A stretch of 63,601 nucleotides of DNA, counting the filler. It is 5 parts of 5 records of this genome, joined end to end, with 100 filler letters (N's around TTAATTAATTAA, not from the genome) between each part and the next. Parts side by side here need not be neighbours in the genome. Positions count along the whole stretch, not along the records: positions 28,528 to 44,312 come from SRR31156797_4948; 4 more parts are not named here. The stretch is one strand, 5' to 3'. Each line of letters begins with the position of its first letter. Position 1 is the first letter of the stretch. Below the pieces are notes generated by a model. It worked only from the letters and a program-made list of their open reading frames with translations, had not been told where the DNA came from and ran no database searches. The translations under genes were made by a program, and so were the position numbers. Below, in pieces: positions 2,371-57,501 of this stretch.

Positions 2371-3384
2371 TTATGCAAATAGAGGTTCGTCGATATGCTG
2401 CGTATGTGCTTTTACAATGGACGAAATAATCCAGTTGGTTTCATCGGGATAATTCACCTCTACAATAGCATCACTTTTCAACCAATTTCTAAATGCACTT
2501 TCTTCTATTTGGTTGAGTGTATTGTACACAGGCACTCCCATAGAAGCCAACATGGCCGCATTACATTGCTGCTCATATTGTCCTGTCATAGGTAGCACAC
2601 ACAGTTTCTTTTTTAAAAACAAAGACTCTGCAGGTGTTTCAAAACCGGCATTACAAAGCACACCTTTAGACGAAACAAGGCTTTTCACAAAACCATCTTT
2701 ATTAACAGGTTGAACATGCACATTTTTAAAAGTAAAGGCCTCTTTATTATGCTTCGAAAAGACTTGCCATTCCACCTCAGGGTAACGAGATAAAAAGTTG
2801 GTAATTACTTCATCAGAATAAGAAGGCAAGTACACGGTAAAATGCTCGCCATTTGTAGGTTGTAACTTTCTGATATCAGCACGAATAACCGGAGTAAAAA
2901 AACCATCTCCTAAACTCTTAAAATGAAAACCATAGTGCTGATTGGCCGGAGCATAATTCTTTAAAATAGCTCTGCCAATTACACTCTTCACCTTTGGGTT
3001 TGGTGCATCCGGATGTAAAACAGCAGCCTGATGCGACACGCCAATACACGGTTTTCCTTTTAATCGGCAAGCCCAGGCCACTACAGGTTCAAAATCATTG
3101 ATCACTAAATCATAATCTTTAACCGGCACTTTAAGTATTTCTGAAAATAAATTGAAAGCATTAATATTTTTAAGGGTAGCTTGAAAGTCAACGCCTCCTT
3201 TCTTTCCGAATATAAAACTTGCTCCGGCATACCTGTATTTTACAGGCCAGGGCAATGCAATATCGCTTTGATTTCCGCTTAAAGCGATGTCTACACTCCC
3301 GCATTTTTTTAATTGCGGAATTACATCTAAGGCGCGAGCCACATGGCCGTTACCTGTTCCTTGAATGGCATATAGAATTTTCAT
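2371..3384 (-). CDS. Glycosyltransferase (GT-B fold, MJ1255/VC2487-like family)
   Basis: MKILYAIQGTGNGH...INDFEP...NAGFETPAE...GQYEQQCNA; start placed at MKILY. Confidence 0.8.
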   Translation of the reverse strand: MKILYAIQGTGNGHVARALDVIPQLKKCGSVDIALSGNQSDIALPWPVKYRYAGASFIFGKKGGVDFQATLKNINAFNLFSEILKVPVKDYDLVINDFEPVVAWACRLKGKPCIGVSHQAAVLHPDAPNPKVKSVIGRAILKNYAPANQHYGFHFKSLGDGFFTPVIRADIRKLQPTNGEHFTVYLPSYSDEVITNFLSRYPEVEWQVFSKHNKEAFTFKNVHVQPVNKDGFVKSLVSSKGVLCNAGFETPAESLFLKKKLCVLPMTGQYEQQCNAAMLASMGVPVYNTLNQIEESAFRNWLKSDAIVEVNYPDETNWIISSIVKAHTQHIDEPLFA

Positions 3385-28427: not shown

Positions 28428-28527
28428 NNNNNNNNNNNNNNNNNNNNNNNNNNNNNNNNNNNNNNNNNNNNTTAATTAATTAANNNNNNNNNNNNNNNNN
28501 NNNNNNNNNNNNNNNNNNNNNNNNNNN
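28428..28527. other. Artificial contig linker
   Basis: 100-nt N run containing TTAATTAATTAA; GC content and gene content change across it. Confidence 0.97.
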
Positions 28528-28547
28528 GCAGGCATGTGCCAAGCCCA

Positions 28548-28613
28548 ACCGCCTCGTAACAGCCACTCGCCTTGGGTACCGTGTGAGAAGGTGAGTGGCT
28601 AAGACGAGGGGGT
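28548..28613 (+). ncRNA. Putative structured RNA (long hairpin) immediately upstream of the RT; 5'-truncated by contig edge
   Basis: AGCCACTCGCCTT 28561-28573 pairs with AAGGTGAGTGGCT 28588-28600 (13 bp, one G-U); CCTCGT 28552-28557 pairs with ACGAGG 28604-28609; ACC/GGT closes the base. Confidence 0.55.
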
Positions 28614-28620
28614 AAGCGCT

Positions 28621-29829
28621 TTGACCGCTTCTTCGCTTCAACGTTTGGCAACTATCTCAAATATTAGGATGACTTGGAGGGCTTTCTGGCGTTCGTCGAA
28701 AGGTCAGCGAAGTGGAGGCGTTGATGGCGTCACACCGCAGGTGTTTCAGCGCAACGTTGAAAGGCATATCGAGCGTATTCGGCACGAATTGTTGAACGGC
28801 TACAGATTCTCACTGCTACGTGGCTGGCCAGTCGATAAGCCCAATGGCAAGAAACGCATTATCTGTATTCCAACCGTTCAAGATAGAATTGTGCAACGCT
28901 TATTGGCTGCTCACCTAACGGAAAAGGCAGATCGTTTCGGTATTATTAACGATGCTAGCTACGGTTTCGTTCCAACTTCGGGTGGAAAAAAACGTGGTGT
29001 AATAGCGGCAAGGGACAGAGCAATAGCCCTGCGCAAGGATCATCCTTGGGCGTACAAATCTGATATCTCTTCATTCTTTGATCAGATCCCTAGGGATCAA
29101 TTAATTGCTCAGACAGTTTCAAAACTGAGAACACCAAGTTTGAAATCACTGATTAAGGGTGTTGTTTCGTGCGAGCTTGATGAGAGTGACCGATACGTAG
29201 CTCGTATAGCAGCCAGCAATGGCATCGTCAGGGGGTGTGGCGTACGACAGGGTATGCCTTTGTCCCCAATGTTCGCAAATATCATACTGCGGAATTTTGA
29301 CCGCGAAATGATGAATCAAAGTATCCAACTAGTTCGGTATGCTGACGACTTCATTGTTCTCGCCGACAAGGAAAAAGAGTGTCTGAAAGTAGATGCTATA
29401 GCGCGTAAATTGCTGTCGCCGTTAGGTCTGGAGTTGCCTCCCCTCGGACATACGAAAACGTCGATTTCTTGCCCTAGTGAAGAGATTGATTTTCTTGGCC
29501 TCGCCTTAGCTCCGAATAGCCTTGGATCTTACGAACTTTTGATCACTGAAAAACAACTGGCTAAAGTTGCGAGATCCTTAAATCAATTGAAGGATGTTGA
29601 CCAACTTGTTCACAAGAGGATTGACATTTCGAATCTTGTTAGGACTGTCGAGAATAAAATCGGAGGATATTTGGCAGCATACCGACAAGCAAACAACGTT
29701 GAGGAACTACAGATAGTACTGGAACATTCGCGTAGCGAAATTCTGCGATCAGTATATGTGAAGGCATTTGGAGAAAAGGCAGTTAGCAGTCTTTCACGCA
29801 ATATGCGGAAGGTGCTTTGTTTAGGCTGA
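28621..29829 (+). CDS. Stand-alone group II intron-like reverse transcriptase (YADD), no endonuclease domain
   Basis: RT0 SGGVDGVT; KPNGKKRIICIPTVQDRIVQR; SYGF; DISSFFDQI; GVRQGMPLSPMFANI; RYADDF; IDFLG; about 100-aa thumb; TTG start preceded by GAGGGGGT. Confidence 0.93.
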   Translation: MTASSLQRLATISNIRMTWRAFWRSSKGQRSGGVDGVTPQVFQRNVERHIERIRHELLNGYRFSLLRGWPVDKPNGKKRIICIPTVQDRIVQRLLAAHLTEKADRFGIINDASYGFVPTSGGKKRGVIAARDRAIALRKDHPWAYKSDISSFFDQIPRDQLIAQTVSKLRTPSLKSLIKGVVSCELDESDRYVARIAASNGIVRGCGVRQGMPLSPMFANIILRNFDREMMNQSIQLVRYADDFIVLADKEKECLKVDAIARKLLSPLGLELPPLGHTKTSISCPSEEIDFLGLALAPNSLGSYELLITEKQLAKVARSLNQLKDVDQLVHKRIDISNLVRTVENKIGGYLAAYRQANNVEELQIVLEHSRSEILRSVYVKAFGEKAVSSLSRNMRKVLCLG

Positions 29830-29868
29830 GGCTGGCTACAAAGATAATAAAATAAACGCTGAATTGAT

Positions 29869-30792
29869 TTACTTTGAATAATCGCGATTGGGACGATTTT
29901 TTTCTCCGGCTGAGATTTCATCCGATTCCAGGAAGTCGGCGAGGCTTTGGGTCGCGCTGCCCGGTTTCAGCGGCTTCTGCTGCGACGGATCGGGCGCCCA
30001 GGCTGTCAGATAAATAACCTCGAAGGTGGCCGGGATGCGGCCGTCGGTATCGGCGAAGTTTTGCCGGTACCGTTCCGCCGCCGCCGCGATTGTGGTGCGC
30101 CGGGTGAAACCTTTGCGGCGCTGAAGCGCGGCGTTGCTTTCGCCCATGGCGCGCAAATCGGTCATCAGGTTGAGCGGATCGGGATAGCTTACGGTGATGG
30201 TATCGGAATCGGCGACCGGCAGGGCGAAGCCGGCACGCAGCAAAAGGTTGCCGGCGTCCCGCACGGCGGCCATCGGCGACGTGCGCAGGCTCAGGCCGCC
30301 TTCGATATCGGATTCGGCTTCGGCAAGGCTTTGCCGCAACTCCTGGACCGTCTGCCCGCCCAGCATGGCGCCGAGAAACAACCCGTCGGGTTTGAGCGCC
30401 CGGCGGATCTGTATCAGCGCGCCGGGCAGGTCATTGACCCAGTGCAGGTTCAGGCAACTTAGGATCAGATCAAAGCTGGCGTCTGCGAAGGGAAGGGCTT
30501 CTTCGTCCGCGGCCAGGGCCGGGCCGTCGGTTTGCGCGATCATGCCCGACGACAGATCTGATTCGAAAAGGGTGTCGATGCCGCCGCGCCCCGCCAGAAG
30601 GCCGCGCAGGGTGCCGGTGGCGGCGCCGAGATCCAAGGCGATAGGAAATTCCCGGCGAACGTCGTCCAGGCGATCCAGCAACCGCTCGCCGATTTCGCGG
30701 CGGAGGAAATCATAATCTTTGAATCCGGGCGCGGCGCGGTCGCGGTGCAAACGCACGGCACGGCGGTCGAAGACGGAAATTTCGTCGCTCAT
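29869..30792 (-). CDS. SAM-dependent methyltransferase (NDUFAF5/BioC-like alphaproteobacterial family)
   Basis: FDRRAVRLHRDRAA; LDLGAATG; LHWVNDLPG; ATFEVIYLTAWAP; divergent from comF. Confidence 0.88.
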   Translation of the reverse strand: MSDEISVFDRRAVRLHRDRAAPGFKDYDFLRREIGERLLDRLDDVRREFPIALDLGAATGTLRGLLAGRGGIDTLFESDLSSGMIAQTDGPALAADEEALPFADASFDLILSCLNLHWVNDLPGALIQIRRALKPDGLFLGAMLGGQTVQELRQSLAEAESDIEGGLSLRTSPMAAVRDAGNLLLRAGFALPVADSDTITVSYPDPLNLMTDLRAMGESNAALQRRKGFTRRTTIAAAAERYRQNFADTDGRIPATFEVIYLTAWAPDPSQQKPLKPGSATQSLADFLESDEISAGEKNRPNRDYSK

Positions 30793-30891
30793 GGCGTCTT
30801 CCGGTTCGGGTCCGGCCCGGTTGGATCAACATTTCTGCCGCTCATATGGTATCAATAACATCACGGCGCGAAGTCGGAAGCGGAAAAAAGC

Positions 30892-31668
30892 ATGCCGGAG
30901 GAAAATCCGTCCCGCCAGCAAAACGCGCGCATCGGTGCCGCCGGAAAACTTCTGACGTCGGCGCTCGACGTTTTGCTGCCGCATCGCTGCATGGCCTGCG
31001 GCACCATCGTCGAAGCCGCCGGCCTGTTGTGCGAAGACTGCTGGCCCGGTATCGAATTCATCGGACCGCCCATATGCGAAGCCTGCGGCCTACCGTTCGA
31101 ATACGACATCGGCGAAGGCGCCCTGTGCGGTGCCTGTGCGCGCCAGACGCCGGCATTTACGCGAGCCCGCGGCGCAGTTCTTTACAACGCCGCCAGCCGA
31201 CACCTGGTGCTGGCTTACAAACATGGCGATCGGACCGAAAACGCGGCCGCCTTCGCACGTTGGATGATGCGAGCCGGGGCCGATCTGATAGTCGACGCCG
31301 ATATGGTGGTTCCGGTGCCGCTTCATTGGTCGCGGCTGTTTGCGAGGCGCTACAACCAGGCCGCCCTGTTGGCCCAGGTCATCGCCCGCAATGCCGGCCT
31401 GCCTTTTGAACCGGATCTGTTGAGGCGGTGCCGGCGCACCCCGTCGCAAGGATTTCTCGGCCGGTCGGCCCGCCGCCGCAATGTCGCCGGATCCTTTGTG
31501 GTGCCGCCGCACGCCGGGAACGACGTAAGCGGACGGCGTGTGCTGTTGGTCGACGACGTCATGACGACGGGGGCGACGGTCGATTCCTGTGCCCGGGCGC
31601 TTTTGCGCGGCGGCGCCGCGGCCATCGACGTTCTAACATTTGCGCGAGTTGCCGTTCCGGCCCTTTAG
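30892..31668 (+). CDS. comF: ComF family protein (double zinc ribbon plus PRTase domain)
   Basis: Four CxxC pairs; RRYNQA; LLVDDVMTTGAT. Confidence 0.9.
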   Translation: MPEENPSRQQNARIGAAGKLLTSALDVLLPHRCMACGTIVEAAGLLCEDCWPGIEFIGPPICEACGLPFEYDIGEGALCGACARQTPAFTRARGAVLYNAASRHLVLAYKHGDRTENAAAFARWMMRAGADLIVDADMVVPVPLHWSRLFARRYNQAALLAQVIARNAGLPFEPDLLRRCRRTPSQGFLGRSARRRNVAGSFVVPPHAGNDVSGRRVLLVDDVMTTGATVDSCARALLRGGAAAIDVLTFARVAVPAL

Positions 31669-31757
31669 CCGTCGTTCAAAATCATTATATTAGGGCAATC
31701 GCAACTTCAAACGGCGGCTCGGTGAGCGGCCGCAAAGAAAAGTCCTGGAGAACAAGC

Positions 31758-32015
31758 GTGGCCGAGATCGAGATCTACACGACACCCTTCTGCCCCTTCT
31801 GCCATCGGGCCAAATCGTTGCTGAAAAAGAAAGGCGTCGATTTCACCGAAATCGATGTGATGATGAGCCCGGGAAAACGACGCGAGATGATGGAAAGGGC
31901 CGGCGGGCAGTCTTCGGTGCCGCAAATTTTTGTCGACGGGACGCATATCGGCGATTGCGATCAAATCCACGAAATGGACTATGACGGTGAATTGGACGCG
32001 GCGCTGAAGATCTAA
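31758..32015 (+). CDS. grxC: Glutaredoxin 3
   Basis: GTG start after GGAG; CPFC; SVPQIF. Confidence 0.9.
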   Translation: MAEIEIYTTPFCPFCHRAKSLLKKKGVDFTEIDVMMSPGKRREMMERAGGQSSVPQIFVDGTHIGDCDQIHEMDYDGELDAALKI

Positions 32016-32025
32016 ATCCCGGTTT

Positions 32026-32664
32026 CTATTGTTTACGCGGCGCCACCGGCCATGACGCGGGTTCGTCGTCGTCGTCGTTTTTCCGATCCTCGCGAATGGC
32101 GCAGATGCGCGAAATCACACCGGGCAGGGGGCCGGTTTCGACCAGCCCGTGTTCGTAGGCGACGATGTGAAAGCGTTCGTCCAGACAGACGATCAGTTCG
32201 CCGGCACGCAACAGATGATCGGGGTTGCGCGGGCGGCAGAACCGTTCGTTGCCGCGGGCAAAGGTTTCGTAGATCAAGACGCCGCCGGGTTCGAGACTAT
32301 CGAGCAGGTGCGGGAACAGTGGCCGGTGCAGGTAATTGACGACGACGATGGCGGCGAACCGGCGTTTTGCAAAAGGCCATTCGCCGCCGTCCTCGAGGTC
32401 GGTCTCGATGACCTCGGCGCCCGGATCGGCAGTCAGATCGGCGACAGCGAAGGTTTCTCGGTCGATGAATACGACCGGATTGCCGCGAGCAAGAAAGAGG
32501 CGTCCATGGCGGCCGTTGCCGCAGGCAAGGTCCAGGACCGCGCCGTTGCCGGCGATCAGGGGCGCGAAGCGCAGAACCCAGGGCGACGGCTCGGTAATCC
32601 TGTGGTGGCGGCGGACCGGCTGCGTTTCTTCCCGTTCATACGGTTCTGTGCCGTCATTACCCAT
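32026..32664 (-). CDS. Class I SAM-dependent methyltransferase
   Basis: VLDLACGNGRH; VVNYLHRPL; PGGVLIYETF; start uncertain. Confidence 0.8.
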   Translation of the reverse strand: MGNDGTEPYEREETQPVRRHHRITEPSPWVLRFAPLIAGNGAVLDLACGNGRHGRLFLARGNPVVFIDRETFAVADLTADPGAEVIETDLEDGGEWPFAKRRFAAIVVVNYLHRPLFPHLLDSLEPGGVLIYETFARGNERFCRPRNPDHLLRAGELIVCLDERFHIVAYEHGLVETGPLPGVISRICAIREDRKNDDDDEPASWPVAPRKQ

Positions 32665-32745
32665 TCTTAACCCTCGTGCTTGTAAACTTGGCAATCGCGG
32701 AGAATTCGACTAAATGGTGGTATTATAAATTAGAGGTTGTCCGCC

Positions 32746-33174
32746 ATGATTTTGTATCAGCTCAAATGCGCCGAAGGCCATGTCTTCGAAGGCTGGTTCA
32801 AGGACGCCGCGACTTACGACGATCAAAGCGCGGCCGGCGATGTGTCGTGCCCCTACTGCGGCGGAAGCCGGGTTTCGAAGGCGCCGATGGCGCCGCGCCT
32901 GGCCAAGGGCGCCAGCCAACCGAGTGCGGTCGAGGAACAGGCCAAGAAGGTTGCCGATCAGATCATGCAGGCGGCCGACAAGCTTCGCCAGCATGTCGAG
33001 GAGAACTGCGACTATGTCGGCGAGCAGTTTGCCGACGAGGCCCGCAAGATTCATTACGGCGAGGCCGATCCGCACGGGATTTACGGCACGGCCACTGACG
33101 AAGAGGCCACCGAGATGACCGAAGAGGGCATCGAATTCGAACAGCTTCGGTGGTTTTCGCGCCGCGACGACTGA
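32746..33174 (+). CDS. DUF1178 family protein
   Basis: MILYQLKCAEGHVFEGWF...CPYCG...KAPMAP...FADEARKIHYGE. Confidence 0.88.
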   Translation: MILYQLKCAEGHVFEGWFKDAATYDDQSAAGDVSCPYCGGSRVSKAPMAPRLAKGASQPSAVEEQAKKVADQIMQAADKLRQHVEENCDYVGEQFADEARKIHYGEADPHGIYGTATDEEATEMTEEGIEFEQLRWFSRRDD

Positions 33175-44312: not shown

Positions 44313-44412
44313 NNNNNNNNNNNNNNNNNNNNNNNNNNNNNNNNNNNNNNNNNNNNTTAATTAATTAANNNNNNNNNNNNNNNNNNNNNNNNNNNNNNNN
44401 NNNNNNNNNNNN
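44313..44412. other. Artificial contig linker
   Basis: N run containing TTAATTAATTAA. Confidence 0.97.
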
Positions 44413-51580: not shown

Positions 51581-51680
51581 NNNNNNNNNNNNNNNNNNNN
51601 NNNNNNNNNNNNNNNNNNNNNNNNTTAATTAATTAANNNNNNNNNNNNNNNNNNNNNNNNNNNNNNNNNNNNNNNNNNNN
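51581..51680. other. Artificial contig linker
   Basis: N run containing TTAATTAATTAA. Confidence 0.97.
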
Positions 51681-57401: not shown

Positions 57402-57501
57402 NNNNNNNNNNNNNNNNNNNNNNNNNNNNNNNNNNNNNNNNNNNNTTAATTAATTAANNNNNNNNNNNNNNNNNNNNNNNNNNNNNNNNNNNNNNNNNNN
57501 N
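57402..57501. other. Artificial contig linker
   Basis: N run containing TTAATTAATTAA. Confidence 0.97.

Follow-up and report, generated by a model that had tools for sequence, protein, structure and literature searches.

How is a solitary reverse transcriptase gene with a weak start codon switched on, and what part is played by the structured RNA that its leader would form? The window analysed here is a stretch of 63,601 nucleotides of DNA assembled from five contigs. Its second contig (SRR31156797_4948) carries such a gene (28621..29829, + strand; 402 amino acids (aa), TTG start), and directly 5' of the gene is a hairpin (28548..28613, + strand). This hairpin is a stable, covarying + strand structure that covers the Shine-Dalgarno (SD) sequence of the gene and abuts its start codon. 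Free-standing reverse transcriptases (RTs) that resemble those of group II introns are thought to be introns in the course of domestication. The one that has been studied, G2L4, is a DNA-repair polymerase. Is the hairpin a relic of an intron, a switch for the gene, or part of a template that the enzyme copies? Here we investigate the hairpin, the leader that ends in it and the RT, in the window and in the homologous loci.

Results

The hairpin at the RT start

The hairpin had first been described in an original prediction made from the letters of this window. Between 28548 and 28630 its stems, loops, SD-like run and TTG match the sequence base for base. The outer stem pairs ACC.CCTCGT (28548-28557) with ACGAGG.GGT (28604-28613). 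A 3x3 internal loop, AAC (28558-28560) facing AAG (28601-28603), leads to an inner stem of 13 base pairs (bp), one of them G-U, between 28561-28573 and 28588-28600. The hairpin loop of 14 nucleotides (nt; 28574-28587) includes the palindrome GGTACC; short palindromes are seen in the loops of other loci too, and we give this no weight. The SD-like GAGGGGGT (28606-28613) lies 7 nt upstream of the TTG (28621-28623), and within it GAGGGGG (28606..28612, + strand, 8 nt before the TTG) is wholly paired in the outer 3' arm. The SD is thus held in the 3' arm by coordinates and fold alike, as had been proposed.

A comparison with shuffled controls had also been suggested. The minimum free energy (MFE) structure given by RNAfold is the one described, at -43.3 kcal/mol; shuffles average -26.8 (standard deviation 3.6; z -4.6), and none of 200 is as stable. 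The hairpin persists in a 173-nt context, but taken as a whole this longer sequence stands out less (z -2.07, with 6 of 200 shuffles reaching its stability). When the 63.6-kb window was searched with a covariance model of the inner hairpin, one site came up, scoring 38.4 bits on the + strand and 21 bits on the - strand. In the window no U-run follows the stem. The prediction had added a small 5-bp stem enclosing the TTG (28614..28630, + strand; 28614-28618 with 28626-28630). This stem is indeed part of the MFE structure, but it is peculiar to this sequence, as the folds of the homologues contain no equivalent pairing.

The RT gene

The RT protein has an RT0 and a thumb region and lacks an endonuclease domain, and its active site motif, YADD, is at residues 240-243. 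Profile searches gave 105 bits for Pfam RVT_1, and 185, 129 and 119 bits for the PADLOC generic RT, RT_UG17 and RT-Cas1 models. The NCBIfam group II RT/maturase model TIGR04416 aligns over residues 18-376 with 176.7 bits, below its cutoff of 300. Compared with solved structures, the protein scores 82.8 bits against Cas6-RT-Cas1, 77.5-79.5 against group II intron RTs and 77.4 against G2L4 (9d5x, 9d4s). Judged by these scores it is about equally distant from all three. Both the profile scores and the comparison with solved structures bear out the earlier view that the enzyme is group-II-intron-like, and on its sequence we class it as a solitary enzyme of that type.

A word-indexed search recovered 150 relatives, nearly all of about 400 aa, and those that are named come mostly from Alphaproteobacteria. 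In an alignment of 25 members, the window RT and 24 homologues, the N-termini begin exactly at the TTG. Because the homologues align there, the weak TTG at 28621 is the true start, as the prediction had it. The active site alanine, A241, is shared by at least 90% of these 25 sequences; the G2L4 chain 9d5x has YIDD at the position aligned to YADD.

Conservation and covariation of the hairpin

Besides the window, 18 family loci were gathered; since L087/L088 and L094/L096 are pairs of near-identical loci, they amount to 16 independent ones. Among them are loci of culturable bacteria: L001 is from Methylophaga sulfidovorans DSM 11578, L003 from Bradyrhizobium neotropicale BR 10247 and L004 from Rhizorhabdus argentea DSM 100912. 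Fifteen loci were scanned uniformly over the last 95 nt before the RT start, and in 12 of them the longest helix has at least 7 contiguous bp and ends 7-30 nt short of the start codon. In L094 a hairpin of 7 bp is found 14 nt ahead of the RT gene. All three loci that were fetched later carry a hairpin in the gap between the RT start and the nearer of two upstream direct repeats, which are described below. Among the closer relatives the base of the stem reads GCC-R-CC / GG-Y-GGC and the loop has 13-19 nt; a run of at least three G is present in the loop of 8 of 12 hairpins.

Is it the structure that has been kept, or only the sequence? In a MAFFT alignment of six hairpins that was not fitted to the structure (A8), both sides change in 9 of 13 pairs, and 89% of the cells are paired. 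Its covariation score, 0.518, is reached by none of 500 shuffles and falls to 0.07-0.21 when the partner is slid by 1-3 columns. Six of the 10 alignable hairpins were used, since in the other four (L087, L002, L004 and L001) MAFFT put the 3' arms in the wrong place. A 10-sequence alignment made by register has double changes in 10 of 13 columns, and 11 of its 102 helix cells are G-U. On the opposite strand these cells would be A-C mismatches, in keeping with the earlier suggestion that the G-U pairs favour function on the + strand. The hairpin is kept by compensatory changes across RT loci whose leader sequences are otherwise unrelated. A lack of conservation or covariation among homologues had been named as the result that would count against the structure; what is found is conservation with compensatory changes.

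In the window, as in L092, L093, L002 and L004, the SD-like run is part of the paired 3' arm. In L093 and L092, as in the window, GGGGG is followed by TTG or GTG, and in these two loci it is paired with CCCCC.

Direct repeats 5' of the hairpin

In 10 of the 16 independent loci there are two direct repeats of 82-131 nt upstream of the RT gene. Within a locus the two copies have 93-100% identity, while repeats of different loci are unrelated; the spacers between the copies are 209-273 nt long. The proximal repeat ends 25-65 nt before the RT start codon; the hairpin occupies that gap, and the outer 5' arm of the hairpin is the end of the proximal repeat. There are no repeats in L089, L002, L001, L095 and L084, and in L085, as in the window, a contig end truncates the sequence. 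In place of the usual order of repeat, spacer and repeat, L092 has a different tandem pair, of 142 nt, about 250 nt upstream (2921-3062 and 3098-3239; 96% identical, period 177).

In the assembly of the likely source run, the RT contig of the window stops exactly at 28528, inside the leader. Its first 30 nt (28528-28557) are common to a 127-nt unitig (depth 85) that extends upstream and to a 308-nt unitig (depth 48) that diverges directly after 28557; in the window itself the 30-mer occurs once. The shared 30 nt are an assembly-graph fork at a repeat. From this fork at 28557, the contig being cut there, we infer that the window too has a two-repeat leader. On the evidence of the unitig fork and the homologous loci, 28528..28557 (+ strand) would be the last 30 nt of the RT-proximal long direct repeat, and the 5' arm of the outer stem (28548-28557) sits within it. 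The hairpin is the last element of a longer leader, not a free-standing operator.

The repeat periods are 357, 366, 336, 291, 399, 333, 306, 342 and 339 nt, which are all multiples of three, and 382 nt in L091. Nine of the 10 loci therefore have a period that is a multiple of three (binomial P = 3.6e-4). The last three loci of the set were fetched after the prediction of such a period had been made, and 3 of 3 agree with it.

Between the Acinetobacter plasmid loci L094 and L096 (2300-4199) there are 4 differences in the 683 nt of leader and 73 in the 1217 nt of the RT gene, 52 of the latter being synonymous. Either the leader is under much stronger constraint at the nucleotide level than the RT gene, or it has been exchanged recently. 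No terminator-like site is present in L094 between 2150 and 3050, which supports the leader and the RT gene forming a single transcription unit. A sigma-70-like site (TTGAAA, 18 nt, AATATT) lies at 2352-2381 in L094, 24 nt before the distal repeat. Promoter-like sites in this region number 2 against 1.7 expected from shuffles, and so are not above expectation.

An open reading frame in the leader

What lies between the repeats? In 7 of 7 loci an SD with an ATG or GTG is found 8-72 nt past the distal repeat, and in 3 of 3 further loci shortly past it. The open reading frame (ORF) that begins there would encode 95-144 aa with a basic N-terminus and a hydrophobic helix, and continues across the proximal repeat and the hairpin. 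Its stop codon falls between about 40 nt upstream and 59 nt downstream of the RT start; in L094 the two reading frames overlap by ATGA. In 9 of 10 loci the unit made of spacer plus proximal repeat has no stop codon in the frame set by the SD-led start; in the tenth, L087, a TAG stands where its sister L088 has TGG. The other frames of the repeat unit are free of stops in 3 of 50 cases only.

Just downstream of the repeat unit, all three frames contain stops. Such stops in the three + frames are seen in the window at 28557-28602 and in the last 45 nt before the RT in L002, L089, L084 and L004. The cluster appears unusual for GC-rich DNA, as judged by inspection rather than by comparison with shuffles.

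In the window, the frame that begins at 28528 is open for 24 codons and runs off the contig at its 5' end. Its stop, 21 nt before the RT start, is a TAA in the inner 3' arm (28600..28602, + strand) and is presumed to be the end of the leader ORF. In the relatives the leader ORF is seen to end in or beside the hairpin; for the window we infer the same.

Discussion

What does the hairpin do?

From the sequence, we lean somewhat towards the hairpin being a cis-acting translational gate in the + strand mRNA of a solitary group-II-intron-like RT. Folded, it would keep RT synthesis low. Ribosomes finishing the leader ORF would melt it and free the RT start, in a form of termination-reinitiation or translational coupling. 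Beside the RT binding of the prediction, this would be a second and simpler means of opening the structure. In addition, the RT might bind the hairpin, in the manner of DIVa in group II introns. A specific ligand is likely, since the hairpin persists in loci with no leader ORF and has semi-conserved bases in stem and loop. By analogy the RT itself would most likely be that ligand.

Several results weigh against the gate or narrow it. In the uniform scan, L003 and L084 have no convincing hairpin. The 100% pairing of the register alignment is circular because its helices were taken from the MFE structure of each sequence. The covariance model R1, built from six hairpins, recovered those six training hairpins alone; it missed L087, L002 and L001 at E<=10 with filters on or off, and it missed the L004 hairpin in the default-filter search, L004 having been left out of the search with filters off. 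There is no clear SD near the RT start in L086 and L087, so SD sequestration is not universal. As to the leader ORF, seven of these ORFs gave no credible Pfam match (two were at chance level, E 0.04 and 0.09) and no PADLOC match at E<=1. Differences between the leader ORFs of L004, L098 and L099 are spread evenly over the codon positions, and in GC by codon position the leader ORF is only weakly gene-like. Finally, the hairpin is also kept in loci with neither repeats nor leader ORF, both of which are missing from 5 of 16 loci, so coupling cannot be its sole role.

Is the hairpin an operator like DIVa, inherited from an intron ancestor, to which the RT binds to repress its own translation, so that protein binding is the main control? 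The RT is group-II-like with RT0 and thumb, and, like DIVa in Ll.LtrB (PMC1874635), the hairpin sits right against the start codon. Retention in loci with no leader ORF fits an operator, and the semi-conserved stem base and the G-run in 8 of 12 loops would not be needed for pure occlusion of the SD. Other observations tell against it. No Rfam group II model matches the leader, the loop sequence is variable apart from the G-run, and the G2L4 papers, in their available text, report no RNA partner. By analogy with DIVa we consider such an operator possible but rather doubtful as the main control; it could coexist with the translational gate.

A different role would be at the boundary of a template; the prediction's alternative, the 3' module of a template/primer ncRNA, is likewise conceivable. 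The RT would dock on the hairpin and begin cDNA synthesis where the proximal repeat ends on its 3' side; the growing cDNA would then jump back by way of the identical distal repeat, giving concatemers of repeat plus spacer, an outcome like that of DRT2. This would make sense of a period that is a multiple of three in 9 of 10 loci, including the three that followed the prediction, and of a unit that 9 of 10 loci keep free of stops in the SD-led frame, against 3 of 50 other frames. The three-frame stops just downstream of the unit, the repeat copies that are nearly identical within a locus and unrelated between loci, and the precedent of DRT2 (PMC11100668) point the same way. The period of 382 nt in L091 does not. 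Furthermore, an in-frame period would be needed just as much by a protein whose start is at the distal repeat or ahead of it, five loci have no repeats, and the Drt2 hidden Markov model (HMM) gives 37 bits against a cutoff of 390. We therefore regard docking of this kind as improbable.

The same small chance attaches to the wider proposal that repeats, in-frame stop-free unit and hairpin together are a template for RT-driven template jumping. In that case the hairpin would be where cDNA synthesis begins, the growing strand would pass from the distal repeat to pair again with the proximal one, and the concatemers would skip the hairpin stop codons and encode an open-ended, repeated polypeptide of membrane type. 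If true, this would be gene building like that of DRT2 and neo, arisen independently in a group-II-like RT lineage, and it would also account for the unexplained repeats of G2L4.

The hairpin might instead be a 3'-end element that terminates or protects an abundant leader RNA derived from the repeats, with little read-through into the RT gene. Such an RNA has a parallel in Pseudomonas aeruginosa G2L4, where sense depth over the repeats is described as 20-fold that over the RT ORF (bioRxiv 10.1101/2022.03.14.484287), and the stem is long and GC-rich. The stem is followed by no U-run, however, the L094 leader has no terminator-like site, and a terminator would not have to overlap the SD and abut the start codon as this stem does; we hold this explanation to be highly unlikely. 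A palindrome acting at the DNA level, as a recombination or cruciform site, or a chance inverted repeat is extremely improbable: the authors of the G2L4 study do speak of 'palindromic' repeats and nearby integrases (bioRxiv 10.1101/2022.03.14.484287), but no shuffle in 200 folds as well, the 11 G-U cells of 102 pair on the + strand RNA only, compensatory changes maintain the stem, and no integrase is beside the 8 family loci scanned, though L095 has a DNA invertase about 450 nt upstream.

Genomic context

The five contigs of the window are joined by N44-TTAATTAATTAA-N44 spacers at 28428-28527, 44313-44412, 51581-51680 and 57402-57501, and have GC contents of 0.36, 0.62, 0.40, 0.42 and 0.29. 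They probably come from different organisms, that is, from a mixed bin, and neighbourhood across the spacers is therefore meaningless. A methylmalonyl-CoA mutase gene precedes the RT at the end of the first contig (28170-28427) and also in L086 (26-742). This co-occurrence is judged a coincidence because in the window the contigs are separate and differ in GC (36% in the first). The RT stretch, 28528-29870, is a low-GC island (0.40-0.54) compared with the rest of the contig (0.60-0.67 at 29870-33000), which suggests, from composition, that the RT gene arrived recently by horizontal transfer. The RT genes of the homologues likewise have none of the high third-position GC of their hosts.

The family is sparse. 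Among the genomes sampled it was found in 2 of 401 from the class, in 4 of 401 from the order, and in 1 of 22, 2 of 301 and 3 of 301 in the other samples; it is also present in 5 plasmid records. A profile search of genome contigs with the full-length alignment gave at least four family loci among the matches listed, alongside intron RTs. No relative of the RT was found in a scan of viral contigs, and no homologue in G001, the nearest genome searched.

The neighbours of the 8 scanned family loci are unrelated housekeeping genes. A Pfam search of the 32 ORFs flanking these loci gave no recurrent partner and no SLATT protein, and no integrase adjoins any of them. At L095, the invertase about 450 nt upstream is annotated as a DNA invertase. 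Defence or toxin-antitoxin genes stand beside 2 of the 8 loci, namely a PemK/MazF-like toxin ORF in L086 (2790-3374, - strand) and a HEPN/RES-domain ORF in L004 (225-1454, + strand), both adjoining the RT module; the association is not consistent. There are tRNA genes about 0.3-0.7 kb from the RT module in L081 (2884-3248), L091 (735-805) and L098 (3845-4041), and these may possibly be integration hot spots for the module.

Comparison with known RT systems

Is the RT the protein of a mobile group II intron? In the window (28528-30200) no Rfam family matches at E<=10, domains V and VI of group II introns included. Nine homologous loci gave no Rfam match either (E<=1), nor did seven more at the gathering score; as a positive control, the same search as for the seven found Intron_gpII in 3 of 6 RT loci outside the family. 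For domains I-III there is no group-II-D1D4 match, and in L002 the upstream intergenic space is only 273 nt. The maturase model TIGR04416 stays at 176.7 bits against a cutoff of 300, and downstream the gap between the RT stop (29829) and a convergent methyltransferase gene (29869) is only 39 nt. What the locus shares with DIVa is a stem-loop at the RT translation start that holds the SD, beside a group-II-type RT. In Ll.LtrB the DIVa stem-loop is bound by LtrA (PMC1874635). Unlike DIVa, the hairpin here has no surrounding intron, there being no match to DV/DVI or D1-D4. In the role proposed it would act like DIVa and other operators that occlude a ribosome-binding site (RBS).

A retron was rejected, since the best retron model scores 67 bits where 235 are required, the repeats of the leader are direct and not inverted, and no Rfam retron model matches.

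The layout of DRT10 (UG17) is similar. There too a structured RNA and an ORF resembling a membrane protein precede an RT whose start touches the ORF stop, and the window RT scores 129 bits with RT_UG17. DRT10 requires SLATT, according to the parts of the reports available (PMC12632851; bioRxiv 10.64898/2026.04.29.721553). In contrast, the present family has no SLATT protein among the 32 neighbouring ORFs, its small ORF is one of 95-144 aa with no credible Pfam match and no PADLOC match, and the group II and generic RT models score higher than RT_UG17. It is not a member of DRT10.

With DRT2 and its neo gene, as far as the available text of PMC11100668 describes them, the family shares an RT whose only partner is an upstream RNA, and a stop-free unit of a multiple of three with its own RBS and start codon. 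The period fits in 9 of 10 loci and the stop-free frame in 9 of 10; this is a likeness in layout, not membership. The RT belongs to another lineage (NF041746, 37 bits against a cutoff of 390; PADLOC Drt2, 43 bits), and the homology available for a jump is about 100 nt here and 3 nt in DRT2. The ORF here is also already translatable from the genome.

A close parallel is G2L4. In the available text of the one report on long direct repeats with G2L4 that a literature search found (bioRxiv 10.1101/2022.03.14.484287), which counts about 240 unique G2L4 proteins, such repeats are given as lying upstream of about 70% of G2L4 genes, with the Pseudomonas G2L4 described as a low-GC island, the P. aeruginosa repeats as having a sense-strand read depth 20-fold above that of the RT ORF, and the repeats as modulating survival in a way that is unexplained; the terms 'palindromic' repeats and nearby integrases come from the same text. 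Both families have a free-standing, group-II-like RT of about 400 aa in a low-GC island, with two long direct repeats directly upstream in 10 of 16 loci of the present family. The G2L4 active site is YIDD (PMC4244168, PMC11761039, in the parts available). The window family differs in having YADD in place of this defining motif, and in sequence it is no closer to G2L4 (77.4 bits) than to intron RTs (77.5-79.5), both being below Cas6-RT-Cas1 (82.8); we do not count it as G2L4. A second, YADD-bearing lineage is thereby shown to have a leader of the G2L4 type. Beside the known repeats, three features are added: the covarying hairpin at the start site, the SD-led small ORF in the spacer that ends there, and the repeat period of a multiple of three. 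None of these is described for G2L4 in the available text, supplemental files apart. Together they make G2L4-type repeats, which have had no known role, testable on two counts, how these RTs are turned on and whether the enzyme copies its leader.

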